From a virus: 64,000 bases of DNA. The notes under the pieces are model-generated. The model was not told where the DNA came from, ran no database searches, and worked only from the letters and a program-made list of their open reading frames with translations. The position numbers were made by a program, and so were the translations under genes. Below are positions 18,448-43,259 of this stretch, in pieces; the stretch's first letter is position 1, and every line of letters starts with the position of its first letter. The stretch is taken from positions 17,327 to 81,326 of the IMG/VR virus record IMGVR_UViG_3300029374_000315; one strand, 5' to 3'.

Positions 18448-18476
18448 TGACTAAAACAAAAGGCTGTGTATAATAT
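18448..18476 (+). promoter_or_regulatory. sigma70-type promoter TTGACT-N17-TATAAT
   Basis: Exact hexamers with 17-bp spacer in a 90-bp intergenic gap before the gene at 18519. Confidence 0.6.
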
Positions 18477-18864: not shown

Positions 18865-18893
18865 TTGACTTCTGTAATTGTATCCTGTATAAT
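18865..18893 (+). promoter_or_regulatory. sigma70-type promoter TTGACT-N17-TATAAT overlapping a reverse-orientation copy of the conserved 20-bp motif
   Basis: Exact -35/-10 with 17-bp spacer; -10 lies inside GTATCCTGTATAATGTAGCT. Confidence 0.65.
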
Positions 18894-18936
18894 GTAGCTA
18901 TGGAACGGAGCTACATCATTGTAGAGGAGAATGACT

Positions 18937-19356
18937 ATGGATAACAATATTGACCCAAAGGTCGGAGAGGTTTGGTTGGTTGATCTATCCAATGCGACAG
19001 GTCATCAGCAGCGCGGCATTCGACCGTTCGTTGTGACAAGTAACAACAAGCGTAACCTCTTCAGCCCAACAATCAAGGGGAATCCGTTATCTTCAAGAAC
19101 GTATAAGCGTTCTCCGGTTCATGTTCTACTCTCAAAGGAAGACTGTGAGTTCCTAGAGGTTGATAGTATCGTTCTCTGCGAAGAGACTGATACACTTAAC
19201 AAAGGACAGTTCATCAAGAAACTTGGTGTCTTGTCGGAGTGTCAGATGAATATGATCGCAATGGCAAGATGCAAGGATGAACCGTTTTTGCTCGCAGCGT
19301 TCCTGAGTGGCGTACAACATACTATAGATTTTCAGAATTTTGCCGCATTTGCTTGA
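18937..19356 (+). CDS. PemK/MazF-family endoribonuclease toxin-like protein
   Basis: GEVWLVDLSNATGHQQRGIRPFVVTS...NLFSPT...VHVLL...LEVDSIVLCEETDTLNKG closely parallels Kid/PemK and EndoA; GAGGAGA RBS. Confidence 0.8.
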   Translation: MDNNIDPKVGEVWLVDLSNATGHQQRGIRPFVVTSNNKRNLFSPTIKGNPLSSRTYKRSPVHVLLSKEDCEFLEVDSIVLCEETDTLNKGQFIKKLGVLSECQMNMIAMARCKDEPFLLAAFLSGVQHTIDFQNFAAFA

Positions 19357-19407
19357 TTTGTTCTCAGGTTTAATGGTACACTACATAATAAGAAGGAGTG
19401 TGCCACT

Positions 19408-20334
19408 ATGCTTACTGAAGAAAAAATCAAAGCTTTTGCCGAAAAGTATTCTGATAGAAGCGGTGAGTTTGTTATATCGACACTGCGTCACGTTATGGAC
19501 TATGAGGCTGAACATGGGTATGAGTTGTTTGACTTTACAAAAGATGATTTTGTAAAGATGTTTGCTAAATACAATTGGGTGAACTCAAGTCGGTCGTTCA
19601 GAAATGTAAAGTCGATAATTACAGGGTACATCAAAAGTGAGGATCGAGCGAGCATGTATGACTTAGCTGAATTCTCGGAAAGCGATGTGAGTTCAGACAA
19701 TATGTACGAGGACAAGTATTTTGCGTCAGTTGATGAGTTTGTTGATTTCTTGGATAAGTATGAAGAACCATATCAGATTCGTATGAATGTGATTGCTGCG
19801 CTGTACTGGATTGGCCTTACTTCTGAAGAAGTTTCTAATCTGACGATTAACGATGTTGACTTTGAATCACGTACTGTTTTGAATAAGACCGGTGTTGACG
19901 CGAGATTGATGAATATCATCAAGCAGTGTTATGAAATGAAACAATACGATGCTCCAAATATGGGTGGATACAGAACGTTTTATGTCATAAATGGTGATTA
20001 CATCCTTCGCAAAACAGAGGATAGAACTGGTGCAGACAGTGATTCAAGAATGTCTACAAACACAATTCATAGTTATTTCACGCGCTTGAATGATATTCTC
20101 GAAAGAAGATATCATTCAAAGGCTTTAGATCGAAGACATCTGACCAGAAACGGCGAGTATGTCAAGGTTTATAACTACTGTAAAACTCATCCAGAATTTA
20201 ATCTTGCAGAACTTAGTTTCGGAAATGGTAAAGATCCTCTTGCGGACATTATCGGAAGAAAGTGCAGCAAGGTTGCCTACATTAGTTTCCGGCAAGGATA
20301 CAAGGGCTGGATCGAATACTTCCACAAAAATTAA
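19408..20334 (+). CDS. hypothetical protein, possibly a divergent/inactive tyrosine-recombinase-like fold
   Basis: LTINDVDFESRTVLNKTGVDARLMNII resembles the start of integrase catalytic domains; RHRY tetrad not recoverable. Confidence 0.3.
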   Translation: MLTEEKIKAFAEKYSDRSGEFVISTLRHVMDYEAEHGYELFDFTKDDFVKMFAKYNWVNSSRSFRNVKSIITGYIKSEDRASMYDLAEFSESDVSSDNMYEDKYFASVDEFVDFLDKYEEPYQIRMNVIAALYWIGLTSEEVSNLTINDVDFESRTVLNKTGVDARLMNIIKQCYEMKQYDAPNMGGYRTFYVINGDYILRKTEDRTGADSDSRMSTNTIHSYFTRLNDILERRYHSKALDRRHLTRNGEYVKVYNYCKTHPEFNLAELSFGNGKDPLADIIGRKCSKVAYISFRQGYKGWIEYFHKN

Positions 20335-20339
20335 AAACA

Positions 20340-20362
20340 GGGGGCTTCGGCCCCTTGATTTT
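20340..20362 (+). terminator. rho-independent terminator (GGGGC-TTCG-GCCCC + T-run)
   Basis: 5-6 bp GC stem, UUCG tetraloop, then TTGATTTT. Confidence 0.7.
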
Positions 20363-20422
20363 AACATTGTAACTATATAACACAGGATACATAAAATACT
20401 ATTTGAATGGAGAATGATAACA

Positions 20423-22492
20423 ATGTCTGATTTCAAGAAATTTCGTGCACTGCTGCAAGACCACTTCAATGAGATGGTGAAGGGCGAAAACCCTCTGTTT
20501 ATCACCGATGCAGACGAGGATGAACTGTACAATCTGTATCTCGACAGCTTCCCGGCTGGCACGAATGAGTTGTTCCGTAAACGGCGCGAGTATGACTGTT
20601 CCTGCTGCCGCCGTTTCGTGAAGAATATCGGCAAGCTAGTAGCGTTTGATGATGGAAAAATGATTACTGTGTGGGATTTTGATGCAAAGTCTGTCAAGTA
20701 TCAGCCTGTTGTGGACGCCCTGGATGCTTATGTGAAGAGCCGCACTATTGTGAATCCGTACTTTGTCAGTCGCAATATGATTGGTTCTGGCGATATGTTC
20801 GGCACCGAGATGAACTACGAGTACGATGAAAATCACAAGGATGTGCATACTTGGGACCATTTCGCAGTCAAGATTCCGCAGCGTTTCATTGTGCGGCCTG
20901 ATGACGTTGCTACCAAGATGGCTCAGTGGCGTGATTCCGCAAACGTATATAAGCGTTCTCTGGAAGAACTGACCATGGATGCTGTTGATACTGTTCTGGA
21001 GCTGATTGCACAGAATAGTCTGTATCGTGGTAAGGAATTTGAAAACGTCGTCAAGGTATTCAAGACTAACAAAATCGAATACGACAATACTCCGACTGAG
21101 AACAAGGCCGCATATGTTTGGTTGGCACCGGCGTGGAGCGATATAGGACAGCTTCGTATCCGTAACACCGCTATCGGTACTTTGCTGGTAAATCTGAGTG
21201 AGGGTATGAACGTGGATGCAGCCGTTACTGCTTTCGAGAAAGTTGTTGCTCCTGCAAACTATAAGCGTCCCAAGGCGATTTTTACCAAGAAGATGTTGGA
21301 AGATGCAAAGAAGACTGTCACCGAACTTGGCTATATGAGCAGTCTGGGTCGTCGGTTCGCCACTCTGGATGATGTTACTATCAACAACATCATGTTCTGC
21401 AACCGTGATGCTGCCCCTCGTGTGATGGGCGCTGTGAATCCGTTTGAGGCAATGGCTAAGACTGTTGCGATTGATCCGAAGAAGTTTGGCCGTGCAGAAG
21501 AAATCGGTATCGATAAATTCATCAGGGATGTTCTTCCGACTGCGACTGGCTTAGAACTGTTCATGGAGAATCGTTTTGAGAAGAATATGATGTCTTTGAT
21601 TGCACCGCAGGATAAGAGTGCGCCGAGCATGTTCAAGTGGCCTAATGGTTTCAGTTGGGCGTATACAGGTAATATGGCAGACAGCGATATTCGCGAAAAC
21701 GTTAAGGCTGCTGGCGGCAAGATGGATGGTGTGTTGCGTTTCTCGATCCAGTGGAACGATGTGTCGGGTGAATGGGATGAAAACGATGAGGATGCTCATT
21801 GCATTGAACCTGATAAGAATCATATCTATTATGGCGATAAGTGGAATCCTCGTACTGATGGCCGCCTAGATGTTGATATCCGTTGTCCTAATCAGGGGAA
21901 AGCTGCGGTCGAGAATATCACCTGGCCTGACATCAAAAAGATGAAGGAGGGCGAGTACAGCTTCTATGTAAACTGCTACGCTAATCGTGGTGGTAAAACT
22001 GGTTTCCGTGCTGAAATCGAATTTGATGGCAACATCTACTCGTTTAACTATGATAAGCCGCTGCATCAGGGTCAGAATGTCGCCGTGGCAAAAGTCACGC
22101 TGAAGGATGGCAAATTCTCTATCAAGGAGCTGCTGCCCAGTTCTACTAGCACCCGCGAGATCTGGGGTGTAAATTCCAATCAGTTCGTGCCTGTGTCTGT
22201 TGTGATGTACTCTCCGAACTACTGGGATGAACAGACTGGTAATGGCAACCGTCACTACTTCTTCATGCTCAAGGATTGTGTTAACCCTGAAAAGCCCAAT
22301 GGCTTCTACAATGAATTCCTGAAGGCGGAACTGTTACAGCATAAGCGAGTATTTGAGGCTCTTGGTTCTCAGATGGCAGTTCAGTCGGTAGATGACCAGC
22401 TGTCCGGCGTTGGGTTCTCTGAGACGAAACATGATTCCTTTGTTGTCAAGGTTCAGGGCGCTACTGAGCGGGTTCTGAAAGTTGTTATTTAA
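20423..22492 (+). CDS. large hypothetical protein (690 aa)
   Basis: Long uninterrupted ORF; preferred ATG 9 nt after GGAGA; no recognisable catalytic motif. Confidence 0.6.
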   Translation: MSDFKKFRALLQDHFNEMVKGENPLFITDADEDELYNLYLDSFPAGTNELFRKRREYDCSCCRRFVKNIGKLVAFDDGKMITVWDFDAKSVKYQPVVDALDAYVKSRTIVNPYFVSRNMIGSGDMFGTEMNYEYDENHKDVHTWDHFAVKIPQRFIVRPDDVATKMAQWRDSANVYKRSLEELTMDAVDTVLELIAQNSLYRGKEFENVVKVFKTNKIEYDNTPTENKAAYVWLAPAWSDIGQLRIRNTAIGTLLVNLSEGMNVDAAVTAFEKVVAPANYKRPKAIFTKKMLEDAKKTVTELGYMSSLGRRFATLDDVTINNIMFCNRDAAPRVMGAVNPFEAMAKTVAIDPKKFGRAEEIGIDKFIRDVLPTATGLELFMENRFEKNMMSLIAPQDKSAPSMFKWPNGFSWAYTGNMADSDIRENVKAAGGKMDGVLRFSIQWNDVSGEWDENDEDAHCIEPDKNHIYYGDKWNPRTDGRLDVDIRCPNQGKAAVENITWPDIKKMKEGEYSFYVNCYANRGGKTGFRAEIEFDGNIYSFNYDKPLHQGQNVAVAKVTLKDGKFSIKELLPSSTSTREIWGVNSNQFVPVSVVMYSPNYWDEQTGNGNRHYFFMLKDCVNPEKPNGFYNEFLKAELLQHKRVFEALGSQMAVQSVDDQLSGVGFSETKHDSFVVKVQGATERVLKVVI

Positions 22493-22506
22493 GAGGAGAA
22501 ATTATT

Positions 22507-22890
22507 ATGGAAAAGAATCTGTTTGAAATTGCAACCCGTAATCGCTATCGCTTCAACTATAAGGGTATTATGACTGTTGAAGATCTGTGGGATCTGAGTG
22601 TCGAGGCACTAGATGCGATTTTTAAGACCCTGAATCGTCAGAAGAAGACCGCAGACGAAGACTCCTTGCTGGCTGTTAAGAGTGCCGAAGATACCGAACT
22701 GGCAAACAAGATTGAGCTGGTCAAGTATATCGTGTCTGTCAAGCTGGCTGAATCTGAGGCTCGTGTGGATGCAGCCGAGAAGAAGGCGCAGCGCGATAAG
22801 ATTATGAAGATTGTGGCAAAGAAGAAGGACAAGGAGCTGGAAGATATGGACGTAGACCAGCTGATGAAGAAGCTGGAAGAGTTGAACTAA
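22507..22890 (+). CDS. hypothetical coiled-coil protein
   Basis: 127 aa, K/E-rich helical; GAGGAGAAA RBS. Confidence 0.5.
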   Translation: MEKNLFEIATRNRYRFNYKGIMTVEDLWDLSVEALDAIFKTLNRQKKTADEDSLLAVKSAEDTELANKIELVKYIVSVKLAESEARVDAAEKKAQRDKIMKIVAKKKDKELEDMDVDQLMKKLEELN

Positions 22891-23000
22891 AATAGACATT
22901 TTATCGTGATTTTCGTTAGAATAATTAACGAAGTATCGTGATGTTTCTTCCTCCAAAAATGCTCTGCGCAGGGCTGACAGCCGGGAAAGACCGGCAATAT

Positions 23001-23085
23001 GGGGATATGGTGAAATTGGCAGCCACGCTTGATTCAAACTCAAGTGTCGAAAGACGTATCGGTTCAAATCCGATTATCCCTACCA
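23001..23085 (+). tRNA. tRNA-Leu (anticodon CAA)
   Basis: Cloverleaf drawn by hand: acceptor GGGGATA/TATCCCT, anticodon stem CTTGA/TCAAG with loop TTCAAAC, long variable arm, T-loop TTCAAAT, CCA encoded. Confidence 0.8.
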
Positions 23086-23282
23086 TGAAGATCAGTTGTT
23101 CTAGCTAGATCGGGGATTGGCCGTTCATTGGCAAACGACAAGCATCACACCGGTAAATGATGCCGAGCCCAATAGGAAGGGGAATAAGGTGCAAGCCGAG
23201 TAGCTGTCGGACGAATACCCTTCAGGTAGCCAGTAAACCGGAATGTAAAACAAATGTTGGCTGTTTCTGATCTTCTATATAA

Positions 23283-23365
23283 GCTACCGTGGTGGAATGG
23301 CAGACACCGGAGACTTAAAATCTCCTGTCGGAAACGACGTGCCCGTTCAAGTCGGGTCGGTAGCA
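23283..23365 (+). tRNA. tRNA-Leu (anticodon TAA)
   Basis: Acceptor GCTACCG/CGGTAGC, anticodon stem GGAGA/TCTCC with loop CTTAAAA, long variable arm, T-loop TTCAAGT. Confidence 0.8.
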
Positions 23366-23372
23366 TTGATAT

Positions 23373-23448
23373 CCGGGTGTAGCTCAGTTGGAAGAGCGCG
23401 TGCTTTGGGAGCATGAGGCCGCAGGATCGTGACCTGTCACTCGGACCA
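23373..23448 (+). tRNA. tRNA-Pro (anticodon TGG), atypical T-loop
   Basis: Acceptor CCGGGTG/CACTCGG, D-arm GCTCAGTTGGAAGAGC, anticodon loop TTTGGGA, CCA encoded; T-loop reads ATCGTGA (non-canonical). Confidence 0.55.
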
Positions 23449-23536
23449 GCCCGAAAGGGCATGTAGAATTTTTCATTCACATTATTCCCAGCTCTCTGGA
23501 AACGGAGCAGTGTGACGTAGTAAGCTGGGTATATGA

Positions 23537-23607
23537 TGCGCCATCGCCAAGCGGTAAGGCAGAGGACTTTGACTCCTCCATCACAGGTTCAACCCCTGTT
23601 GGCGCAA
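23537..23607 (+). tRNA. tRNA-Gln (anticodon TTG)
   Basis: Acceptor TGCGCCA/TGGCGCA (U1:A72, as in bacterial tRNA-Gln), anticodon loop CTTTGAC, T-arm ACAGG-TTCAACC-CCTGT. Confidence 0.75.
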
Positions 23608-23612
23608 TTTAT

Positions 23613-23694
23613 GCGGATATGGTGGAATGGCAGACACGCCAGACTTAGGATCTGGTGCTTCGGCGTGTGGGTTCGATGCCCACTATCCGCACCA
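23613..23694 (+). tRNA. tRNA-Leu (anticodon TAG)
   Basis: Acceptor GCGGATA/TATCCGC, anticodon stem CCAGA/TCTGG with loop CTTAGGA, long variable arm, T-loop TTCGATG, CCA encoded. Confidence 0.8.
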
Positions 23695-23801
23695 CGATCA
23701 TAGAATGGTTGCGTACCGTTTTGTTGATCTCCTTTGACTGCCACTATTATTCCCAGCTCGCCAGTGATGGTGCAGTAGTGCTTTGTAAGCTGGGTGATTA
23801 T

Positions 23802-23876
23802 GCAGCGGTCGTACAATGGTTAGTATATCAGCCTTCCAAGCTGAGGATGAGGTTTCGACTACCTTTCGCTGCTCCA
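23802..23876 (+). tRNA. tRNA-Gly (anticodon TCC)
   Basis: Acceptor GCAGCGG/TCGCTGC, anticodon stem TCAGC/GCTGA with loop CTTCCAA, T-arm GAGGT-TTCGACT-ACCTT, CCA encoded. Confidence 0.7.
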
Positions 23877-24063
23877 ATCTCGTATGGGTAGGATTTTTAG
23901 CGGTCAAATCCGGCTGCGCCTGTGCGAGATACCACCCCGAAAGGGGCGAGATATAGGAAATGTGCATCACTGTTATTCCTTCCTCGTCTATATGATATAG
24001 ATGCAATAGTGTTTATAAGGAAGGTTCCCAGTTGAATAGTTGCAGCTGTTTGACTGGTAATAT

Positions 24064-24140
24064 GGGATAGTAGCTCAGTTGGTCAGAGCTGGCGGCTCAT
24101 AACCGCTTGGTCGCGAGTTCAAATCTTGCCTGTCCCACCA
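24064..24140 (+). tRNA. tRNA-Met/Ile2 (anticodon CAT), elongator-type
   Basis: Acceptor GGGATAG/CTGTCCC, D-arm GCTCAGTTGGTCAGAGC, anticodon loop CTCATAA, T-loop TTCAAAT, CCA encoded. Confidence 0.8.
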
Positions 24141-24282
24141 GCCCAATAGGGTATACATAAAATCTGCTAGAATTTTTGTTTTATAAGCGATGAAATAATA
24201 TGACGTTGATACGTCTATTATTTTTTTGCTCATTTTCGGAGATTTAGCTATGTAACACAGGATACTAAAAGGAGGTGGTTTG

Positions 24283-25822
24283 GTGAAACATTATGGAAGT
24301 ATTTGCGAGATTGATGGTTCTAAGATTGAGCCTGTCTCGTGTATCACTGGTGGTTCACCTTGTTAGCCAAGACCTTTCTATTGCCGGTAAGCGGGCAGGT
24401 TTGGCTGGAGAACGGTCTGGTCTATTTATGGAAATGATTCGTGTGATAAAGGAAATGAGGGATGCCACCAATGGAGAATGTCCAAAATTTGCAATCTGGG
24501 AAAATGTTAGAGGAGCACTTTCCTCAAACAACGGAGAAGACTTCCGATGCGTCTTGGAAGAATTTGCACACATCGTCGAAGCAGACGCTACAATTCCTAA
24601 ACCTTCGGGAAAAGGCGGAAAATGGTCTAAATCCGGCGCAATTTCCGGTAATGGATGGTCTTTGGCATGGAGACTCTTCGATGCTCAATATTGGGGAGTG
24701 CCCCAACGTCGTCAAAGAATCGCGCTTGTCATGGATTTTAGAGGACAACGTGCCGCAGAAATACTATTTGAGCGCACGGGCGTGCAATGGAATCCTGACG
24801 AGAGCATCCCGACGTGGCAAAGCTTTGCCAGAATTACTGAAGAATGCACTGCTAAAGATGATCGAGTGGTGGGAGAAAAAAGCTTTTGTATTGTCGGAAA
24901 CATGATTGACAGAGAAACCAACATGAACGGGACTGGTGTAAAAGAAGATACTGCTTTTACTATAAACACTATTGACCGTAATGCTGTTGCCTACACTTTA
25001 AAGATTCGTTCAGGATGCGAAGGTGGTGGCAAAGGCGCACTGGTACAGACCGAGAAGAGTGCAACGCTTTCTACATTGCAAGATCAAACGCTAATCTGCT
25101 TGGCAGACAACACCTCTTTACATAATTTAAAACAAAAGATTTGTGTCTTGAATGATCAGGGCGGTAGTGTAATGAATGTTTCTTACGATATTGTAGGAAC
25201 AATAAGAGCACAAGAGCATGGTCATCAACCAATTGTATTTGAGAGCCATAGTCAAGATGCTCGATACACCCAGCAAGGTAATACAAGTCCGGCTTGTACG
25301 GCTCAATGGGGAACTGGTGGCAATAATATGCCGCTTGTTGCCGAAAAGAAAGCCTTTGCAATGCAACGCATTGGTGAATACAAGGAAAGTGAACAAGCTA
25401 GTACGATGAAATCTCGTGACTACAAGGATGCTACTGACTTGATTGCAGAGAAGGAAACGAAGAATCTGCAATGGATTGTTCGTCGCCTGACTCCTGTTGA
25501 GTGTGAACGGTTACAGGGTTTTCCTGATGGATGGACCGATATTGGCGAGTGGTTTGATGAGAATGGTAAAAAGCACAAACCTGCCGATTCTCCTCGTTAC
25601 AAAGCACTCGGTAATTCAATCGCTTTGCCTCAGTGGTATTGGATTTTCCAGAAAATGAAACCGTATATCGGTGAAAATCCTACGCTTGGCAGTCTTTTCG
25701 ATGGAATTGGTGGCTTTCCGCTTGTCTTTGAAAGTATGTATGGTGATGGTACTGCTATCTGGGGATCAGAGATTGAACCGTTCTGCGTTGCAGTAACGAA
25801 GAAGCATTTCCCAGAAGACTAA
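24283..25822 (+). CDS. DNA (cytosine-5)-methyltransferase, circularly permuted; N-terminal catalytic segment in a different frame (frameshift/pseudogene or recoding)
   Basis: Frame A (GTG 24283) encodes ...EIDGSKIEPVSCITGGSPC then TAG at 24364. Frame B (24293..25822) continues QDLSIAGKRAG (motif IV), ENV (VI), QRRQR (VIII), RLTPVECERLQGFPDGW (IX), KALGNSIA (X), and at the C-terminus LFDGIGG (I) and SEIEPF...HFPED (II/III). Confidence 0.8.
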
Positions 25823-25859
25823 ATCTCATAAAAGGCTAATTCAAATAAGAGGTGACACG

Positions 25860-26066
25860 ATGAACAGCAAAATTTCTATCAATGCAACCATCGGCCCCGG
25901 TTCTTTGAGTATTCCGGCAAGTCCTATCTTCCAAAAGGAAAAGAATACATATCTTTGTCCGTTTTGTGTGACGAAGCTGGAGAAGTCCGAGCGTGAATGT
26001 TCTGATTGTCATCGCAAGATGGATTGGAGTAGGTTCACTGAAAAGAAGGAGGAGGTGTTCACTTGA
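25860..26066 (+). CDS. zinc-ribbon protein
   Basis: CPFC...CSDCH. Confidence 0.5.
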   Translation: MNSKISINATIGPGSLSIPASPIFQKEKNTYLCPFCVTKLEKSERECSDCHRKMDWSRFTEKKEEVFT

Positions 26067-26341
26067 ATATAGATTTCTTCCGACGGCGCAAGACTCAGCT
26101 TGAAGATACGCTTCTTTTGAAAAATCAGGCCGTCGATATGCTTGATTATCTAAAGACGCACTGCATCAACAATGACCAGTATTGTGCCATTCGAGATTAC
26201 ATTGAAGAAGCTGCGAAGATCCTGGAGAGCGACCTCGAATACGCAAATAATAAGCTACAATCCGCATTCAAACCTAAGTATGGCCGGAACAACAGATTGA
26301 CTCGTGCTCAATCTAAGATGTTCCGTGATAGAGAATATTAA
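26063..26341 (+). CDS. hypothetical protein
   Basis: 92 aa; overlaps upstream stop. Confidence 0.5.
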   Translation: MNIDFFRRRKTQLEDTLLLKNQAVDMLDYLKTHCINNDQYCAIRDYIEEAAKILESDLEYANNKLQSAFKPKYGRNNRLTRAQSKMFRDREY

Positions 26342-26358
26342 AAATGGGGTGATGCCGT

Positions 26359-26571
26359 ATGAACACATGTAAGAAAATATGTAACTGGTGTGGTCGTGAA
26401 ATCAAGCCGATAGGTAGCGAGCAGGGAATCAGTTTTGAGCATCAATACTCTTATGGTAGCCAACTTGATGGTTCGCTTTTGAGTTTTGATTTGTGTCCTG
26501 AGTGTTCAGAACGGTTCCCAGTAGTGCTCGGCGCAATGTTTATACATAATCCATTAAAGGACGATTTCTAA
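26359..26571 (+). CDS. zinc-ribbon protein
   Basis: CNWCGRE...CPEC. Confidence 0.5.
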   Translation: MNTCKKICNWCGREIKPIGSEQGISFEHQYSYGSQLDGSLLSFDLCPECSERFPVVLGAMFIHNPLKDDF

Positions 26572-26719
26572 CGGCGGGTGCTGTATGAAATATAAGCCAT
26601 CAATAAACCAGACGGAGGATAACACATAAAATGAATAGTGCGTAAATTGATTTGAGACAGTGAAACAGGAAACATAAGTGATTACCAATAAAACAAAATT
26701 ACATAAAAGGAGACTTAAT

Positions 26720-27820: not shown

Positions 27821-27891
27821 AAATTTTTTGCTTTTAACTAAGTAACACAGGATACCAATAAAAAAAAAGATTTAGAGAGGAATTTACATAT

Positions 27892-29052: not shown

Positions 29053-29744
29053 TGGAACTTACCCGTAAATGCAAGATTTGCGGGAAGAACATTTTCATCG
29101 AGCGAGACCGTAGCACTTTCTTCTACGACAAGACCGGCTTTTGCCATAAGGATTGTTTTGTAGAGGAAAAGAAAAATCAAAAACGCCCTTGGACAGATGA
29201 CCTGCTGAGGGCATTTTTTGACAAAGTGAAAGAAACTACGGATAAAAAGGTCGATGATCTTCTTTCCAAAAAGAGGGAGCAAGACCACAATCGTGAGCTT
29301 GCACGTATTAAACAGGAAGAAAAAAAGATTCTTTTCGACCATATTCGAGATACATATGCCCCGGCGGTTGTTCCTAGCAGCTTCTACTCGAAACTTACAC
29401 AGTTAATTTCCGGTAATTATTACAAATATAGAGGTTCTATTCCTCCGCTAGAACTTTACGATATGTGGGTTCTAGCGAAACCCCGACTAGATAAGATAAT
29501 TGCCGAGAAAGAAGCAAAGGGCTGTGATATGAGCCAGCGATGGAATTATGACTTGGCTGTTTTGTTAGCTCAATATCCTAGTTATCTCGAACGAAAAGAA
29601 AGACTAGCTTCGATTCGCAGTGAAAGCGAAGACAAAGCGAAGGAAAATTTGACTGAAACGGTACTGAAACGGATGAAAACAGCACCGAAACAGAGTAAAA
29701 ACGAGAATGAAATTGATATAAATGCAATTCTCGATGAGATATAA
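29052..29744 (+). CDS. hypothetical protein with N-terminal zinc finger
   Basis: CKICGKN...CHKDC; basic/helical remainder. Confidence 0.5.
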   Translation: MELTRKCKICGKNIFIERDRSTFFYDKTGFCHKDCFVEEKKNQKRPWTDDLLRAFFDKVKETTDKKVDDLLSKKREQDHNRELARIKQEEKKILFDHIRDTYAPAVVPSSFYSKLTQLISGNYYKYRGSIPPLELYDMWVLAKPRLDKIIAEKEAKGCDMSQRWNYDLAVLLAQYPSYLERKERLASIRSESEDKAKENLTETVLKRMKTAPKQSKNENEIDINAILDEI

Positions 29745-29757
29745 AAGAGGTTGGTAA

Positions 29758-30975: not shown

Positions 30976-30998
30976 AAAATATAAAGGGAGGTGGATGA

Positions 30999-32522: not shown

Positions 32523-32531
32523 GGAACTACA

Positions 32532-35299: not shown

Positions 35300-35300
35300 T

Positions 35301-35648
35301 ATGGGAAATTGGAAACGTGCTATCGCCATCGACTTTGATGGCACTCTCTGTGAGAATAATTATCCTGATATCGGTGAACCAAACTGGAATGTCATTTATC
35401 AAGCAATTCAGGAACAGAAACACGGTGCTGGTCTGATTCTCTGGACTTGCCGTGAAGGGAAGCTCCTGTATGACGCAATTGAAGCTTGCTTCGATTGGGG
35501 TATTCAGTTTGATGCAATCAATGAGAGTCTTCCTGAGTGGAAAGAGCATTTTGGCACTGCTCCTAGAAAGGTTGGAGCTGATGAATATTGGGATGATAAG
35601 GCTAAGGTTGTAAAAAATGGAGAGTTGATTGACAATGCTGATGCCTGA
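35301..35648 (+). CDS. small HAD-superfamily phosphatase (nucleotidase-like)
   Basis: Motif I IAIDFDGTL; T in LILWTCREGK; DD in ADEYWDDKAK. Confidence 0.55.
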   Translation: MGNWKRAIAIDFDGTLCENNYPDIGEPNWNVIYQAIQEQKHGAGLILWTCREGKLLYDAIEACFDWGIQFDAINESLPEWKEHFGTAPRKVGADEYWDDKAKVVKNGELIDNADA

Positions 35649-35820
35649 ACAGTTTGAAGCAGACGTTAAAGAATTTATCGCAGAATGCAAAAGCCATCCA
35701 GTGATAGATTTGTCAAAAGATGATCCATGCGAAGGATGTCGCTTTGAGGACTTTTGCGATAGGTTTTATCCGGGCGATGGTAGCACATGGCATTGGCGAG
35801 TTTATGAGAGGGGTGAATGA
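35629..35820 (+). CDS. hypothetical protein
   Basis: 63 aa; overlaps neighbours. Confidence 0.4.
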   Translation: MTMLMPEQFEADVKEFIAECKSHPVIDLSKDDPCEGCRFEDFCDRFYPGDGSTWHWRVYERGE

Positions 35821-36579
35821 ATGGTTTACATTACAGGCGATATTCATGGTGATTACAATCGGTTTTTAGAATTGGAAAAGTTTTGCCATAAACACAATCT
35901 TGGAATGAATGACTGGATCGTCTGCCTTGGCGATGTCGGTTTGAACTACTACGGCAAGGATGACCCTCGTGAATGGAGTATCAAGACTATCGCCGCAGAT
36001 ATTCCTGCAAATCTGTTTTGTATTCATGGCAACCACGAGCGCCGCCCGTCTCGTAAGGATGGTTACAAACTAAGGAAGATTTGTGGTGATATTTGCGGAA
36101 GAGCGTGGTATGACCCGCAGTATCCAAACCAGTATTTTGCTATTGATGGTGAGGTTTATCAGATTCTTTCTGGCATAGAGATGTTGAATTGTCTTGTTTG
36201 TGGTGGAGCTTATTCTGTGGATAAGTATTATCGGTTGGAGTGTGGATATAATTGGTTTCCCGATGAACAGCCGAATGAAAAAATAAAAAAGAAAGTTGCG
36301 CAGCAGGTAAACGATAGTAATATCGATGTTGTGTTAAGTCACACTTGTCCGACACGCTACGTTCCTACAGAGTTGTTTCTTAGTTGTGTTGATCAAAGTA
36401 CTGTTGATAGTTCTACGGAAGAGTTTCTTGATGATATTCTTGATATTCTGGAAGAGACTCGTATTGGTAAGCCGTTTTGGTATTTTGGTCACTTTCATGG
36501 CAATAAATATACTGACGATTATGTGATGCTTTTTGATGACGTTATTAAATTTGGAGATAAGGTGAAGAGTGATGAGTGA
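35821..36579 (+). CDS. calcineurin-like metallophosphoesterase (Ser/Thr phosphatase family)
   Basis: GDIHG, GDVGLN, GNHE signature motifs. Confidence 0.8.
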   Translation: MVYITGDIHGDYNRFLELEKFCHKHNLGMNDWIVCLGDVGLNYYGKDDPREWSIKTIAADIPANLFCIHGNHERRPSRKDGYKLRKICGDICGRAWYDPQYPNQYFAIDGEVYQILSGIEMLNCLVCGGAYSVDKYYRLECGYNWFPDEQPNEKIKKKVAQQVNDSNIDVVLSHTCPTRYVPTELFLSCVDQSTVDSSTEEFLDDILDILEETRIGKPFWYFGHFHGNKYTDDYVMLFDDVIKFGDKVKSDE

Positions 36580-36817
36580 ATATCATGTGAGCTGTGGCAT
36601 GTTTGGTATTTACGCAGGAACTGTTAAAAAGAATGGAACTGAATGGAAGGATAAAACCTGTGTCACGGACGAAGCTATTGAGGCGGTTCGTGATTGGCTT
36701 CTTTCTGAAGCTCAATCGGATAACAGAACTTCTGGTGGATATGCATGGACAACAAAGGATGGTAAGACTGTGACTTTGAGAGTGTCTATTGAGGGTAAGG
36801 TGAATACGGATGATTAA
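36569..36817 (+). CDS. hypothetical protein
   Basis: 82 aa; overlaps neighbours. Confidence 0.45.
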   Translation: MMSEYHVSCGMFGIYAGTVKKNGTEWKDKTCVTDEAIEAVRDWLLSEAQSDNRTSGGYAWTTKDGKTVTLRVSIEGKVNTDD

Positions 36818-37133
36818 AAATAAAAATTTACGAGTGCTTGATTATATTGATGGCAAGGAAATCCTCATTCAGATGGGTGAGGAAGGTTCTGAGCTGTCGA
36901 AAGCTGCGATAAAGTTTTATCGTGCAATCGACATGAAGAACCCAACGCCTGTAAGCATTAACGAGGCTTATGAGAACCTCGTAGAAGAATTCGGTGATGT
37001 GCTGAACTGTATCTACGCATACTATGATGATGACGAAGATTGCATCTTGGCGTTTACATCGAAAGCGAATGAGATTGCTAACGAGAAGCGCAAGCGTTGG
37101 ATTAAGCGCCTGAAGGAACGCAATCAGTTTTAA
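36810..37133 (+). CDS. MazG-like nucleoside triphosphate pyrophosphohydrolase
   Basis: EEGSELSKA and EEFGDVL acidic helix motifs typical of small MazG domains. Confidence 0.6.
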   Translation: MIKNKNLRVLDYIDGKEILIQMGEEGSELSKAAIKFYRAIDMKNPTPVSINEAYENLVEEFGDVLNCIYAYYDDDEDCILAFTSKANEIANEKRKRWIKRLKERNQF

Positions 37134-37150
37134 TGGTGGAAGGAGAATAG

Positions 37151-40100
37151 ATGTCAGATAATTTTGTAAATCTTCATGTACATACAGCGCAGGGTTCGTT
37201 ACTTGACTCTATTCTTACCGTCAAGGAACTTGTAAACTTTGCCAAAGAAAACGGCCAGAAAGCAATCGCGGTTACAGACCACGGAAAAATGCACTCTTTT
37301 GTTGACCAAGTTAAGGCTTGCAAGGAAGCAGGCATTAAGCCAATCATCGGCTGTGAGGTCTACGAAGTAGATAATCAGAGCGAAAAAGCTGATACGAAAG
37401 ACTATAAACAACCTCGTTATCATCTTGTTCTGCTGGCAAAAAACGAGACCGGTTTGAAAAATCTGTTCAAGGTTGTTTCAAATGCTTGCGTTGATGGCAT
37501 GTATAAAAAGCCTCGAACTTCTTTAAACATCATTGAACAGAACGAGTGGGGTAAAGGTATCATCTGTCTTACGGCCTGTCAAGTTGGTCGAATGAGTAGA
37601 TTGCTTGTTGATGGGAACGAGACTGAGGCATGGCAGTTATGGAACAAACTGAAATGGATCTTTGATGACGTGTTTATGGAAGTTCAGTCTCATGATACGC
37701 CAGATCAGGCTGAAGCTAATGCCAAAATTGCAGCTTTTATCAAAAAGTACAATCTTCCGTATACCATTACAACCGATGCTCATATGCTTTCCAAGGAAGA
37801 TGTTGATGCACATTCAGTTTTTGTAGAAATTGGAGAAGGACGAGAAGTTGGAGAAAGTTATGTTGACTGCTATCTTCAGACCGAAGACGATGTGCTAAGA
37901 ACACTTTCAAAGCAGTTTGATGAAGACTTCATCCGAGAAGGTTGCTCAATGTCTGTGAAAATTGCAGATATGGTTGACGATATTGATATTGGCCTTGGCC
38001 AGCCAAACCAGATGCCAGAAGTAAAAATTGAAGGTAAATTTGATTCGCATCTGGATTACCTGCGTTACCTCGTTTATTCTACTTTTGATGAAAAATTCGG
38101 ATGGATGAGTAAAGAAGAACAGCAAACCAGGCGGGACAGAATTGAGATGGAGCTTGACGTTTTGGAATATGTTGACTACATCGACTATTTCATCATGCTG
38201 TATATGCTTTGTAAGGTGGCCGATGAACGAGGTATCCCTCGTGGCTATTCTCGTGGTTCTGGTGCAAACTGTCTATGTCTATTTATGCTAAACGTTACGC
38301 AGATTGATTCTGTTCGTTGGGATCTTGACTTCTCTCGTTTTGCAAATAAGGGTCGTAAGAGTCTCGCGGACTTCGACTTTGATATTAGCCGTCGTCGTCG
38401 CAAAGAACTTGTTTCTATTGCAGAAGAGCTTTTTGGAAAAGAGAGTGTAGCACCAATCGCAACTTTTAATTCTCTGTCTACCAAGGTTGCCATTAAGGAT
38501 ATTGGAAAGGTACTGAACGAAGATCCAGAAAGCCCATATTATATGCAGATTCCGTATGAATTGCGAAATGAAGTTGCTAAGTTGATTCCGACCGTGAAAA
38601 CATTGGATGATCTCGGAGAAGAAGTTGAGAAGGAAGTTCTATTGAAGGACATTCTTGGAAAGAGCGAGCAGCTTTCTAATGTGTATGATAAGTTCCCTCT
38701 ATGGTTTAAGTACGTTATGCGGCTTGAAGGTTTACCGAAAAGTATGGGTCGCCATGCTGCAGGAACTTTGATTACGCCTAAGCCTGTCATTGAATATTGT
38801 CCTCTCTGTATGGATAGAGAAGGAAATCAGATGTGTCAGCTTGAAATGCACAATGCAATGGACGACTTATCATTGGTCAAGATGGATTTTCTTGGTCTTG
38901 AAAATTTGGACACGATTGATGACACATTAAAGATGGCCGGTCTAACTTGGAAGGATGTTGACATCAACCATCTCGATCTAAACGATAAGGCGGTCTACGA
39001 CGCAGTTTATAAGTCTGGACACACAATTGGTATTTTTCAGATGGAGTCTGCTGAAGCTCGAAAGATGTGTGTTGAAGCAAAATGTGACAACGCCGAGGAT
39101 ATCATTGTTGTGAATGCAGCAAACCGCCCTGGCACTAAGGACAGCTTCCCGACGTATTGTTCCAATAAGCTTCATCCAGAGACTATCAAACTACTTCATC
39201 CTGACATCAAACAGCTTTTTGCCAAGACTCAGTACATTCTTCTTTATCAGGAACAGGCTCTGGCAGTATTTCGTTATGCAGGATTCCCTGAAACTGAGGT
39301 TGACAATGCTCGTCGTGCCATTGGTAAGAAAAAGAAAGATGTTATGGCATCCTTGGAGGTCCAGTTTAGAGATGGTCTTCACAAAAAAGGATGGAACGAT
39401 TATCAAATTTCTGAGATGTGGGCATTGATCTTGAAACAGGCTTCTTATTCCTTCAATCGGGGCCACGCAGTTGCTTATGGACTTCTTTCTTACCTAACAG
39501 CATACTTGAAGACTCATTATACTGAGTATTTCATGGCTGCGTGTATGATTACTAAAGAAGATGATTCTGGCAAAATGGGTGTGTTCATCAATGAATGTGA
39601 CCGTCTACATATTCGGGTCCTTCCTCCAAGTGTTAACAGGTCTGATATGGAATTTAAGGCCGATGCGGAGAAGCACACAATTTTGTTTGGCTTGAAGGCC
39701 ATTAAGGGAATGGGCGAGAGTGTCGCATCAGGGGTGATTGCAGACCGTCCATATTCTGGATTGGCAGACTTTGTTCAGAGAGCAAACGGTGGAAAGATTG
39801 GCACTTCAAACGTTGTCAAGTTGATTAAGGCTGGAGCTATTCCAACAAGGGACAAGAGAAAAATCTTAATCACTTTTGCAAATATGGTTTTTGAGAATGA
39901 GTATAAAGAGAAGGGTTTTCATGAGATGGCATCTCTTCCCAAAATCTCTGTTCTTAAAGACGAATATGGGATTGACACAAATTATATTAAAGATAAGCCT
40001 ACTAGACTTGTTTTATATAATAAGGCACGAAGGGTGCGCTGGGAGGCAGATGCGGAGAACCGTAAGAAGGAAAAAGACAAGAAACGAAAAGATTTCATGC

Positions 40101-40498
40101 AGGCGTTTGCTGAAAAGTATATGCAAGACGAGCACATGTGGGAATTTGAAACCCTTTCAATGTTCTTAACTAGCAATCCAATTAAGGATGCTTGTACCTA
40201 TATTGATGCTTGTCTTGATACTGTAGAGGATGGCGGTGAGGCAACTGCTATTTGTGTCATCGTAGACATTCAAAAAAAGAAGGATAAACGTGGCAACCAG
40301 TTTGCATACTTACATGTTTACACGACAGGTGGTATTGTTGAAATGATTTGTTGGGCTTCCCAATATGCACGATATTCCAATTTGATCTCAAAGGGTAGTG
40401 ATCTTGCAATTCTTTGTAAGAGAAAAGAGAATTCGTACATTGTTGAGAAGATGAAGCCTTACAAGCAGTGGTTGCAAGACAGAGAGATAAAGCAATGA
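37151..40498 (+). CDS. dnaE: DNA polymerase III alpha subunit (DnaE-type, PHP domain)
   Basis: N-terminal PHP motif NLHVHTAQGSLLDS...AVTDHG; 1115 aa. Confidence 0.85.
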   Translation: MSDNFVNLHVHTAQGSLLDSILTVKELVNFAKENGQKAIAVTDHGKMHSFVDQVKACKEAGIKPIIGCEVYEVDNQSEKADTKDYKQPRYHLVLLAKNETGLKNLFKVVSNACVDGMYKKPRTSLNIIEQNEWGKGIICLTACQVGRMSRLLVDGNETEAWQLWNKLKWIFDDVFMEVQSHDTPDQAEANAKIAAFIKKYNLPYTITTDAHMLSKEDVDAHSVFVEIGEGREVGESYVDCYLQTEDDVLRTLSKQFDEDFIREGCSMSVKIADMVDDIDIGLGQPNQMPEVKIEGKFDSHLDYLRYLVYSTFDEKFGWMSKEEQQTRRDRIEMELDVLEYVDYIDYFIMLYMLCKVADERGIPRGYSRGSGANCLCLFMLNVTQIDSVRWDLDFSRFANKGRKSLADFDFDISRRRRKELVSIAEELFGKESVAPIATFNSLSTKVAIKDIGKVLNEDPESPYYMQIPYELRNEVAKLIPTVKTLDDLGEEVEKEVLLKDILGKSEQLSNVYDKFPLWFKYVMRLEGLPKSMGRHAAGTLITPKPVIEYCPLCMDREGNQMCQLEMHNAMDDLSLVKMDFLGLENLDTIDDTLKMAGLTWKDVDINHLDLNDKAVYDAVYKSGHTIGIFQMESAEARKMCVEAKCDNAEDIIVVNAANRPGTKDSFPTYCSNKLHPETIKLLHPDIKQLFAKTQYILLYQEQALAVFRYAGFPETEVDNARRAIGKKKKDVMASLEVQFRDGLHKKGWNDYQISEMWALILKQASYSFNRGHAVAYGLLSYLTAYLKTHYTEYFMAACMITKEDDSGKMGVFINECDRLHIRVLPPSVNRSDMEFKADAEKHTILFGLKAIKGMGESVASGVIADRPYSGLADFVQRANGGKIGTSNVVKLIKAGAIPTRDKRKILITFANMVFENEYKEKGFHEMASLPKISVLKDEYGIDTNYIKDKPTRLVLYNKARRVRWEADAENRKKEKDKKRKDFMQAFAEKYMQDEHMWEFETLSMFLTSNPIKDACTYIDACLDTVEDGGEATAICVIVDIQKKKDKRGNQFAYLHVYTTGGIVEMICWASQYARYSNLISKGSDLAILCKRKENSYIVEKMKPYKQWLQDREIKQ

Positions 40499-40740
40499 AT
40501 GATGTTTTATATAATGGTGTTTTATATACTATTGACGGAGAGGTTCTTTGTGAATTTCCTGAGTTTAAAATTGATTGTTACAAAGATAAAACTGTAATTA
40601 AGATACATTGTACGAATTGTTGCGTCGTTAGAAAAGTTCAGAAGTGGAAGTTTGACTGCGCAGAACAATGCGAGCTTACCACAAAATGGTTTTATTGCAG
40701 AGTGTGCGGAGGACTGACAGAATTTAGATTAGGTGCATAA
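40495..40740 (+). CDS. Cys-rich small protein
   Basis: ATG overlapping dnaE stop (ATGA); CTNCC...CRVCG. Confidence 0.45.
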   Translation: MNDVLYNGVLYTIDGEVLCEFPEFKIDCYKDKTVIKIHCTNCCVVRKVQKWKFDCAEQCELTTKWFYCRVCGGLTEFRLGA

Positions 40741-40755
40741 TAAGAGGGTTATAAA

Positions 40756-43086
40756 GTGGCAGATAAGAAATTTAATGAAAATATGATCCGTTGCTACATT
40801 AGGATAAAACGAGTCTTTTATCCGAAAGATGGGAGGGAGGTGGAGCCCGGCGGCTTCGCCACTTTCTCTGCCGAGGTGGTAAAAATCAAGCAGGGGAATC
40901 CTGTTATGAGTCGATACAGCGACCTCCGGCTAAAGGGCAACGTTCCTAGTCTCGATATGAATAAAACTTATTCGTTCTGTGGTGAGTATGTTCATCATGA
41001 AAAATTTGGCGATCAGTACAAAATCATCTATATGAATGAGTTTCAAGAGATCACTGACCCGGAAGAACAAAAAAGCTTTCTCCGTTTTATCTTGACTGAC
41101 CATCAGTTTGAGATGCTTTACGAAGCATTCGACAATCCGTATGAAATTATCAAGAATGGTGATATCAAGTCTCTTTGTACTGTTAGCGGTATTACGGAAG
41201 GTCGAGCACAAAAGATCATTGACTCTTTTGAAAACAACGTTGATAACAGTGAAGCGTACACAAAACTGGTTGAATACGGTTTGACCCCCAGTGCTATTGA
41301 AAAGCTTGTTCGTCAGTATCACGGTGCAGACACTCTGGTAAGAAAGATTGAGGAGAATCCTTACGTCCTGATCGATGATGCGTATGGCATTGGCTGGAAA
41401 AAAGCTGACACTCTTGCTTTGAATATGGGTTTAAAGCGCAATTCGCAATTCAGAATCGAAGCTTACGTCATGCATTTTCTTGCCGCCCGTGCCGAAGAAG
41501 GTAACTCTATTATCCCAGCAAACCAGACAATCAATAGCTGTATTAAGGAACTTGATTTGAACGAGGGTGACCAAGAAGTCATCAAAAGGGCATTTTTCCA
41601 TCTGCATGATGTTCGTGAAACGCTTTGGTGGAGTGATGACCGTCAGGAATTTGCTTTAACTAGAGTGTGGAATCTTGAAGATGAAATCGCAAAGGAAATC
41701 AAGCGACTGGCGGATGCACCTGTTAAACCGATTGGTCGAAACATGGATGTAGCAATCAATGAAGCTGAGGGTGCGCTTGGCATCGAGTATACTGAAGAGC
41801 AGAGAGATGCTATTAAAAAGGTATGTTCTAGCAACGTCTGTATCTTAACAGGCTACGGCGGAACTGGTAAAAGTACCGTTGTCGCTGGTGTTCTAAAGGT
41901 TCTTCGTGGTAAGTCTTTCGCTCAGACTGCACTCTCTGGTCGTGCCGCAGCTCGTATGCAGGAGATTACTGGTCAGGATGGTAAGACCATCCATCGTCTT
42001 CTTGGTTATGATATTGAGAATGGTGGTTTCATTCATAAGAAGGACAATCCTCTTGAAGAAGATATTATCATTCTGGATGAGACATCTATGGTTGGAGCTC
42101 AGTTGTTCTATGACTTGATTCAGGCAATCGAGACCGGAAAGCGATTCATCATGATTGGCGATGACGGCCAGCTTGAGAGTATCGGTATGTGTAACATTTT
42201 CAAGGATATGCTTGCATCTAAGGTTGTTCCTGTGGCTCGTTTGACTAAGATCCATCGTCAGGCGGCTAAGTCTGCAATTATCACGGAGAGCATCAAGGTT
42301 CGTAACGCTACACAATTGGTGCCTTATGGCTGGGCTGGTAGTGAGATTCGTGGTGAACTTCGTGATTTGGAGCTTGATATCTATAAAGACACAAGTGAAT
42401 CATTCAACCACATCATCAATCAGTACCGTACCTTATATAATAAGGTGGGGAATGATAGTGCGAAGATTCAGATTGTACTTCCACAGAAGCTGCGTGGTAG
42501 TATCTGTACTTATGAAGTCAATAATGCTATTCAGGAAATTGTGAATCCGAGTCGTGGTCAAGCAGAAGCAAAGGTCACAATCTATGGTGATGGCAAGGAT
42601 AGAGTGTATACTCTGCGTGAGGGCGATCAGGTCATCATTAACAAGAATAACTATGAGCTTCACACATACAATCTCAAGACAAAGAAAAAGGAAGAGAAAT
42701 GTCCGGTGTTCAATGGAAACCGTGGCATTATCCGAAAGATTGAGAGTAGTTTTATCCTGGTTGATTTTGACCAGTGGGGAACGATATTTATTCCTCATTA
42801 TTTTGGTGGGAATAACATCTGGGCAACACTTGAACTCGCTTATGCTTTGAGTTGCCATAAACTGCAGGGCAGCGAAGCTCCGTATGTGATTGTCGGTATG
42901 GACAACTCTGCATACCTGATGTTAACGAGAGAATGGCTCTATACGGCCATCACTCGTGCCAAGAAGTATTGTGTGATTTGCGCTGAAACCCATGCTCTTG
43001 ATCGAGCAGTAAAGACTTCGAGAGTACCGTACAAGCGGACGTTCTTGAAGGAATTTTTACGGAAAGAATTTTCAGAAAAGCGTTGA
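40756..43086 (+). CDS. RecD2-like superfamily-1 DNA helicase
   Basis: Walker A TGYGGTGKST, Walker B IIILDETSMV, HhH-like SGITEGRAQKII; 776 aa. Confidence 0.8.
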   Translation: MADKKFNENMIRCYIRIKRVFYPKDGREVEPGGFATFSAEVVKIKQGNPVMSRYSDLRLKGNVPSLDMNKTYSFCGEYVHHEKFGDQYKIIYMNEFQEITDPEEQKSFLRFILTDHQFEMLYEAFDNPYEIIKNGDIKSLCTVSGITEGRAQKIIDSFENNVDNSEAYTKLVEYGLTPSAIEKLVRQYHGADTLVRKIEENPYVLIDDAYGIGWKKADTLALNMGLKRNSQFRIEAYVMHFLAARAEEGNSIIPANQTINSCIKELDLNEGDQEVIKRAFFHLHDVRETLWWSDDRQEFALTRVWNLEDEIAKEIKRLADAPVKPIGRNMDVAINEAEGALGIEYTEEQRDAIKKVCSSNVCILTGYGGTGKSTVVAGVLKVLRGKSFAQTALSGRAAARMQEITGQDGKTIHRLLGYDIENGGFIHKKDNPLEEDIIILDETSMVGAQLFYDLIQAIETGKRFIMIGDDGQLESIGMCNIFKDMLASKVVPVARLTKIHRQAAKSAIITESIKVRNATQLVPYGWAGSEIRGELRDLELDIYKDTSESFNHIINQYRTLYNKVGNDSAKIQIVLPQKLRGSICTYEVNNAIQEIVNPSRGQAEAKVTIYGDGKDRVYTLREGDQVIINKNNYELHTYNLKTKKKEEKCPVFNGNRGIIRKIESSFILVDFDQWGTIFIPHYFGGNNIWATLELAYALSCHKLQGSEAPYVIVGMDNSAYLMLTREWLYTAITRAKKYCVICAETHALDRAVKTSRVPYKRTFLKEFLRKEFSEKR

Positions 43087-43111
43087 CAATTATGTGCGTA
43101 TCCTGTATAAT
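43083..43111 (+). promoter_or_regulatory. sigma70-type promoter TTGACA-N17-TATAAT overlapping a reverse-orientation motif copy
   Basis: Exact consensus hexamers; -35 overlaps the recD-like stop codon; -10 inside GTATCCTGTATAATATAGCT. Confidence 0.65.
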
Positions 43112-43180
43112 ATAGCTATAAAAAGTCTCCATCCCGGAGGCTTAAAATTCTCTCTTTAGCTATATAATACAGGATACGAG

Positions 43181-43220
43181 AAAGAAATGGCTTGCTCGTA
43201 ATGACAAGCCTTTCTTTATT
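43181..43220 (+). terminator. hairpin/terminator-like structure (AAAGAAATGGCTTG-loop-CAAGCCTTTCTTT)
   Basis: 13-bp interrupted stem with 10-nt loop followed by ATT; lies between motif copies F4 and F5. Confidence 0.4.
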
Positions 43221-43259
43221 GGCTTTAACTATATAACACAGGATGCTCAAGGAGGTTTT

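Follow-up and report, generated by a model that had tools for sequence, protein, structure and literature searches.

A conserved 20-bp intergenic motif marks the transcription-control layout of a family of human-gut phages and may be an SPBRE-like repressor operator

The 64,000-nucleotide stretch of viral DNA analyzed here (positions 17,327 to 81,326 of IMG/VR record IMGVR_UViG_3300029374_000315; hereafter, the window) carries seven copies of an asymmetric 20-bp motif, which is well supported as a real control site marking the layout of transcription control in this phage and its relatives. It is most likely that one phage protein reads this site at every early and middle transcription unit, a point on which the two main readings of the motif agree. 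Tentatively, we favor the reading in which the motif corresponds in position and layout to SPBRE, a repeated element of Bacillus phage SPbeta, and serves as the operator of an MrpR-like repressor encoded in the window, the leading alternative being the promoter of a YonO-like phage RNA polymerase. A repeated operator and a phage-specific promoter class were also the two explanations offered in the initial annotation of this sequence, and they still lead.

A search of the whole window with the consensus AGCTATATAACACAGGATAC, allowing up to three mismatches, gave seven matches against 0.01 expected by chance (100 shuffles), and the seven copies in both orientations described in the initial annotation were all recovered with the same positions, strands and sequences. 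The weight-matrix scan, proposed there together with the shuffled controls, scored the seven copies at 30.4–33.5 bits and the next-best site in the window at 9.3 bits, so that the window holds no degenerate copies. Intergenic gaps make up 5.7% of the window and contain 7/7 copies. All 10-mers common to at least three of these gaps come from the motif, and this comparison of the gaps by shared 10-mers revealed no other repeated intergenic element. The 20-mer reads A[GA]CTA-YRYW-A-Y-ACAGGAT[AG]C and is without dyad symmetry; the blocks AGCTA and A-Y-ACAGGAT-R-C are near-invariant (the block ACAGGATAC is part of the 20-mer), and four central positions vary. Conservation peaks in the block adjoining the ribosome-binding site (RBS), not upstream of the AT-rich center, and the flanks of different sites are mutually unrelated.

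An exact scan of a viral collection located the motif at more than 117 loci, nearly all of them in 120–140-kb human-gut contigs that are 80–100% identical to the window; 11 other loci with a single copy each were set aside as chance matches, eight of them representing a single orthologous site of a phage group unrelated to this family. The motif is kept at every orthologous site in more than 200 related gut-phage contigs, and since the hairpin loops and the 3–4 nt beside it vary freely while the 20 bp are retained at each site, its conservation reflects constraint. The relatives carry at least five further copies just upstream of the window, position 1 of which lies, as placed via these relatives, about 210 nt past another forward copy. 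Window and upstream sites make up 12–13 orthologous site classes (13 in the count used here), all intergenic, and the original view of the motif as a marker of the transcription-control layout is well supported. Ten of the 13 classes run in the direction of the gene that follows, on both divergent arms, and nine of these end 2–44 nt 5' of an RBS. The other three are reversed, in the constant register TTGAC(A/T)-N9-GTATCCTG-TAT(A/T)AT, and retain the motif in full length. Gaps of 40, 40, and 41 bp separate the copies of three inverted pairs, whose spacers are unrelated.

Host-type (sigma-A) promoters are found at or around the motif at four places, namely at 18865, at 43083, about 0.2 kb upstream of the window, and in the divergent region. 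Both reversed copies in the window lie, as had been noted, inside TTGAC(A/T)-N17-TATAAT promoters (TTGACT at 18865–18893 and TTGACA at 43083–43111), and the reversed copies make up only a part of such promoters. The -35 and -10 hexamers at 18865 are identical in 13/13 distinct relatives, and the 43083 promoter is conserved in 26 distinct relatives. No -35/-10 pair with a 16–18-nt spacer was found at the forward copies, in agreement with the observation that they have no equally good -35; the copies at 20371, 24246, 27836, and 43227 and the one before the polymerase gene are without a sigma-A promoter. Terminators stand 5' of the copies at 20371, 24246, and 43227, and none was seen 5' of those at 27836 and before the polymerase gene (site d). 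Each forward copy had been described as heading a gene block, which holds for 20371, 24246, 27836, and 43227 but fails for 43158, where a terminator hairpin follows. The 15–40 bp proposed between these copies and the RBS has to be revised to about 18, 4, 20, and 3 nt, respectively. The copies at 43098 and 43158 form an inverted pair with a 40-bp gap; the hairpin between them is followed by no U-tract on the + strand, and among relatives its stem is kept as its loop varies.

Table 1 Motif copies, promoters, terminators and candidate regulator genes in and just upstream of the window
Feature	Position	Strand	Remarks
Sigma-A-type promoter TTGACT-N17-TATAAT	18865..18893	+	11/12 consensus; drives MazF-like/MrpR-like operon
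Reversed motif copy AGCTACATTATACAGGATAC	18880..18899	-	30.4 bits; spans -20 to -1 of the 18865 promoter
PemK/MazF-like toxin gene	18931..19356	+	First in operon; PF02452, E 5e-19
MrpR-like 308-aa protein gene, tyrosine-recombinase-like	19408..20334	+	Candidate motif reader
Intrinsic terminator	20331..20364	+	Closes putative repressor operon; -18.2 kcal/mol, z -4.3
Forward motif copy	20371..20390	+	~18 nt 5' of RBS of 692-aa orphan
Intrinsic terminator	24192..24226	+	After tRNA array; -12.8 kcal/mol, z -3.0
Forward motif copy	24246..24265	+	4 nt 5' of RBS of C5 DNA methyltransferase
Forward motif copy	27836..27855	+	Between YorF-like and Sak4/AAA_24-like genes; heads replication block
Sigma-A-type promoter TTGACA-N17-TATAAT	43083..43111	+	12/12 consensus
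Reversed motif copy	43098..43117	-	Covers spacer and -10 of the 43083 promoter
Conserved hairpin between arms of inverted pair	43123..43143	+	-11.1 kcal/mol, z -4.2
Forward motif copy	43158..43177	+	Terminator next, no gene
Terminator flanked by A- and U-tracts	43181..43217	+	Between two tandem forward copies; -15.4 kcal/mol, z -3.3
Forward motif copy	43227..43246	+	3 nt 5' of RBS of ATP-dependent DNA ligase
Site b	Upstream (relatives)		TTGACA-N17-TATTAT promoter with reversed copy, 41-bp spacer, forward copy, first early gene
Site c	Upstream (relatives)		Divergent copy pair 40 bp apart; spacer has TTGAAT-N17-TATAAT (with TG), toward leftward arm
Site d	Upstream (relatives)		Forward copy 14 nt 5' of RBS of 927-aa protein gene, leftward arm

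The second gene of the operon behind the 18865 promoter encodes the 308-aa tyrosine-recombinase-like protein, which has lost the box-I arginine (IGLTSEE; R is replaced by T in the alignment to Tn1549 Int) and aligns end to end with YopR in BLASTP (E 0.002, 19% identity over 273 aa). Against the PF22822 cut-off of 27, the window protein scores 21.1 bits (below), the P0066 homologue 27.7, and P0068 25.9; PF22823 yields only weak precomputed matches for this protein family, and a single-sequence AlphaFold model (mean predicted local distance difference test score of 33) is unusable. Judged from its sequence, the protein is most likely a catalytically dead MrpR-like tyrosine recombinase and the prime candidate for the reader of the motif. 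Pfam searches for regulators among 28 further open reading frames (ORFs) of the window and the upstream region turned up none, and a search for natural knockouts found that every relative spanning the region retains both the MazF-like and the MrpR-like genes. In relatives, the polymerase arm carries an Ant/KilAC antirepressor gene. The toxin gene lies directly 5' of the MrpR-like gene in one operon, an echo of the SPbeta mrpR operon, whose yopM product reportedly acts on the host MazE/MazF pair.

In SPbeta, MrpR, a dead tyrosine recombinase, is the master repressor and binds ten sites, and SPBRE is the only repeated intergenic element (PMC10516654). Our scan of 49 kb of the SPbeta record recovered nine SPBRE copies, upstream of eight of the ten MrpR-bound genes (yonX has two), all co-directional with the next gene, 0–25 nt from its RBS, and after stem-loops; most of them fall within a sigma-A-like promoter or directly behind one, and no such promoter was recognizable at yopM. 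They precede yonP–yonO, the mrpR operon, and the Sak4 block and follow the polymerase-III gene. In gene content and order, the window matches SPbeta (yorF, yorG, yorI-L, ligase, methyltransferase), and the motif occupies the matching places, namely before the YonO-like gene, before the MrpR-like operon, by YorF/Sak4, and after the polymerase-III and RecD genes. Because this layout matches that of SPBRE and MrpR and the window encodes an MrpR-like, putatively dead recombinase, the operator is the reading that we favor; it is ranked first since experiments on the closest relative studied provide a precedent and since it accounts for the copies that are reversed, paired, or without a gene.

We infer that the MrpR-like protein binds the motif and represses by binding. 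At the reversed copies, covering -20 to -1 of the promoters at 18865, at 43083, and about 0.2 kb upstream of the window, it would shut these promoters, among them that of its own operon, which would amount to autoregulation. The fourth host-type promoter, which would drive the polymerase-gene arm, lies between two divergent copies, and this sandwiched TTGAAT-N17-TATAAT promoter and the reversed copies fit, by analogy, the classic operator position. A second copy 40–41 bp away would permit cooperative binding, and the constancy of these gaps, with unrelated spacers, fits two bound protomers interacting with each other. The copies between terminator and RBS (20371, 24246, 27836, 43227, and the polymerase-gene copy) would be downstream operators or roadblocks, keeping the lytic blocks silent. 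That the 43158 copy heads no gene also supports an operator, as do the antirepressor gene on the polymerase arm and the finding that the window offers the MrpR-like protein no second repeated intergenic element as its operator.

Several observations weigh against this assignment. At five site classes there is neither a -35 nor a host-type promoter that could be regulated. In the TATAAY hexamer, the last position is C in about 40% of distinct sequences and the second is G in some (TGTAAC at 24246), and TATAAC, TGTAAC, and AGTAAC are frequent at forward-only sites; a sigma-A enzyme should not use such hexamers. The distance from terminator to motif is only 6–20 nt at 20371, 24246, and 43227, and the 692-aa, methyltransferase, and replication blocks would be promoterless, so that read-through of the terminators would be needed. 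All ten classes not embedded in promoters are co-directional with genes, although an operator carries no such requirement, and the sequence of SPBRE, ACAAATACAA-AWAATATGTATAT, is unrelated to the motif. The homology of the 308-aa protein to MrpR is marginal and weak, given a PF22822 score under the cut-off, the low identity, and a probability of 0.7% in profile–profile comparison with YopR (hhalign, shallow profiles). Finally, lysogeny is putative, and a scan of 185,579 species-representative genomes of GTDB with the polymerase found no close relative; the polymerase relatives in GTDB are only 46–56% identical and belong to Clostridia, and none has the motif. The comparative tests (GTDB relatives, the L233 genome described below, and natural knockouts) did not separate the operator from a polymerase promoter.

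The gene for the polymerase in question lies about 10 kb upstream of the window, in relatives 80–97% identical to it. This 927-aa protein is a YonO-type single-subunit RNA polymerase because it matches PF05183 (E 3.7e-15), has the metal site NADFDGD (NGADFDGD), and shows homology to SPbeta yonO (E 3e-19) and to proteins of phage c-st (39%) and Enterocloster phages (39%). It is possible, if on balance unlikely, that the motif is the promoter of this two-barrel enzyme, perhaps acting with a 251-aa zinc-ribbon partner. The forward copies would then start each early, middle, and polymerase/late unit, and the hairpin terminators would stop the host enzyme only; at the reversed copies the phage enzyme would occlude the host promoters, making a host-to-phage switch, perhaps with antisense transcription over earlier genes. 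Such a role would suit the forward-only sites, which lack sigma-A features and often follow terminators, so that among shared elements only the motif could act as their promoter; it would also suit the co-directionality of ten of the 13 classes on both arms, the three gene blocks without a host-type promoter, and the motif 14 nt 5' of the polymerase-gene RBS in 61/61 distinct relatives. The stretch from the host promoter to the polymerase gene contains no terminator, so that the first polymerase can be made by the host enzyme. With the sigma factor of the Enterocloster phage PMBT24 as the query, the only phage sigma factor tested, no homologue was detected in about 95 kb of genome, which favors the polymerase.

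The possible partner is the product of a 251-aa ORF that overlaps the 3' end of the polymerase gene (L054:7668-8423) and has a Cys-rich, zinc-ribbon-like C-terminus; an ORF at the same position in PMBT24 is 29% identical (E 1e-13), and the protein may be a polymerase partner or specificity factor. Further in favor of a polymerase promoter, L233, an Acutalibacteraceae metagenome-assembled genome with a 52% identical polymerase, has another repeat, GTACCAACATTCTAT, in 3–4 forward copies (8631–9978) upstream of the polymerase gene, the last of them again 14 nt 5' of the RBS, so that the layout seems kept though the sequence differs; a scan of the viral collection with the L233 15-mer gave single chance matches only. 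PMBT24 itself, the closest cultured phage with a related polymerase (39% identity), lacks the motif and is uninformative as a comparison, because its own 19-bp repeat TTCAATTCGTAAAGTAAAA (L120/L121; six exact copies, at 1078, 2157, 5034, 73406, 73596, and 87072) mostly precedes hairpins, visible after 4/6 copies, and has no clear relation to genes.

A polymerase promoter accounts poorly for the three fully conserved copies inside host promoters, which face away from any gene, and for the 43158 copy, which runs directly into a terminator, and it requires an extra assumption for the fixed 40–41-bp gap of the pairs. Moreover, the 18 kb downstream of the polymerase gene contain no motif copy of at least 10 bits, and conservation is strongest beside the RBS, not upstream of the AT-rich center. 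In SPbeta, YonO has just one promoter, that of the late operon (PMC5467207), and the repeated element of that phage is a repressor site. As the sequence of the YonO promoter was left undefined (Forrest et al., 2017; PMC5467207), there is no YonO promoter to compare the motif against; the P-YonO region of SPbeta, placed from the published primers without an exactly placeable start, shows no similarity to it. The broader proposition that the forward copies are YonO-family promoters and that the reversed copies within host promoters effect a host-to-phage switch, whether through the enzyme or through a repressor sharing the site, strikes us as tenable, though somewhat short of an even chance.

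Such sharing, with the forward copies as phage-polymerase promoters and the same 20-mer as operator of the MrpR-like repressor, is in itself doubtful. It would let one repressor silence both host-driven and phage-driven transcription and would explain the promoterless blocks, the reversed copies that resemble operators, the pairing of copies, and the match to SPbeta, where SPBRE is comparably a sigma-A promoter core and an MrpR site. It would, however, require that two unrelated proteins recognize one 20-bp sequence, the whole motif and not just a sub-block of it is retained in the reversed copies, and no YonO-type enzyme is known to transcribe early genes. It is more improbable still that the motif is a loading site for a lambda Q-like antitermination factor, or an RNA-level site processed by the MazF-like protein or by RNase III, the latter acting on the 20-bp stem of inverted pairs in read-through RNA. 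The strong sigma-A promoters of the embedded sites have hairpins or terminators within 40–100 nt, the forward copies lie in 5' leaders, and a MazF-like gene is encoded; but the forward copies come after terminators, not before them, the sense transcript from the promoter of a reversed copy does not include that copy, single copies lack a partner to pair with, and no Q- or N-like protein was identified. That the forward copies are weak, -10-only host sigma-A promoters spread by duplication of one promoter module is highly improbable: the motif contains TATAAT or TATAAC, with a perfect TATAAT in some relatives, but there is no -35 or extended -10, C in the last and G in the second hexamer position are common, conservation is strongest outside the hexamer, and the flanks of different sites are unrelated.

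Other features of the motif regions and of the genome are recorded here. A truncated forward copy (AGCTACAT...) lies 9 nt past the reversed copy at 18880 (18892–18916), directly 5' of the toxin RBS, and makes an 8-bp inverted repeat with the end of that copy. Just before the 18865 promoter, at 18447–18474, is a strong, motif-free sigma-A-type promoter, TTGACT-N16-TATAAT (11/12), 5' of a 121-aa ORF, through which expression of the putative repressor operon could persist when the 18865 promoter is shut. The 41-bp spacer of site b holds a weak hairpin. All genes of the window are on the + strand, with small early ORFs in the first 18.4 kb. The region from 18.9 to 48 kb encodes the PemK/MazF-like toxin, the 308-aa recombinase-like protein, the 692-aa orphan, seven tRNAs, the C5 methyltransferase, the YorF-like and Sak4/AAA_24 proteins, a primase, RecJ, the alpha subunit of polymerase III, RecD2, the ligase, and ThyX. 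Behind the 20371 copy lies a gene slot whose content differs among relatives: it holds the 692-aa orphan here (20414–22492), a 736-aa AAA_33, Metallophos and T4 RNA-ligase protein resembling Pnkp-like RNA repair in many relatives (L358:11062-13272), and an HNH/NUMOD4 gene in another (L360:12090-12566). Between the 692-aa block and the methyltransferase, the seven-tRNA array (23001–24140; Leu x3, Pro, Gln, Gly, Met) is preceded by a weak sigma-A-like promoter at 22893–22922 and followed by a terminator at 24202. The genes from 48 to 64 kb are non-structural (NrdD and phrog_200 proteins); a candidate assignment of 48667 and 50202 as terminase and portal was rejected, these being a phrog_200 protein and NrdD. 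In the 48667–54294 region, the 1040-aa NrdD anaerobic ribonucleotide reductase has an N-terminal extension of about 460 aa, and on either side of its ORF is a phrog_200 'lipoprotein' paralogue (507 and 283 aa).

The phage family is extremely common in human-gut assemblies and has no cultured member; one exact protein sequence of it occurs in 753 index blocks of an assembly collection. The contigs of the family are mostly 50–200 kb long, and a few of 204–784 kb (L362, L363, and L368 among the entries) could be concatemers or integrated prophages, which bears on a temperate lifestyle. For this family, the motif provides a complete map of the transcription units together with two testable reader proteins. 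If it is a repressor site, the SPbeta-type switch based on a dead recombinase would extend from Bacillus to abundant gut phages of Clostridia, in a new arrangement, with promoters that contain reversed copies and with inverted pairs separated by 40 bp. If it is a polymerase promoter, it would be the first promoter consensus for the YonO family, answering a question open since 2017, and would offer an orthogonal polymerase–promoter pair for Firmicutes.

The motif is worth comparing with the regulatory sites of better-known phages. As with SPBRE and MrpR, a single asymmetric element occurs about ten or more times per genome of about 135 kb, in intergenic positions throughout, with co-directional copies before genes, near the RBS and often after a stem-loop, and tandem copies 64–69 bp apart in both phages; SPbeta also encodes a dead recombinase, and the present phage a putatively dead, MrpR-like one. 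In contrast, SPBRE is always forward and usually part of a promoter or just after one, whereas here five classes are promoterless and three lie in reverse within promoters; inverted pairs separated by 40 bp were not seen in SPbeta, and binding to the present 20-mer is predicted. Promoters of phage single-subunit polymerases include the 23-bp T7-type, those of the two-barrel polymerases of crAss-like phages and P23-45, and P-YonO of SPbeta. The motif partly resembles these in being an asymmetric, conserved site of about 20 bp that heads gene blocks without sigma-70 features in a phage encoding its own polymerase, with one copy before the polymerase gene itself, but differs from them in that three copies face away from genes within host promoters and one precedes a terminator. 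The parallels to lambda OR/OL are that the sites overlap very strong early promoters, in the -10 and spacer, that they form pairs of fixed spacing, and that the operon of the regulator itself appears autoregulated; unlike OR/OL, the motif has no dyad, and many of its roughly 13 genome-wide sites are away from any promoter. A protein-binding site between consensus -35 and -10, with a hairpin or terminator close behind, would also be analogous to lambda Q/qut, although many further copies lie downstream of terminators here and no Q-like gene was found.

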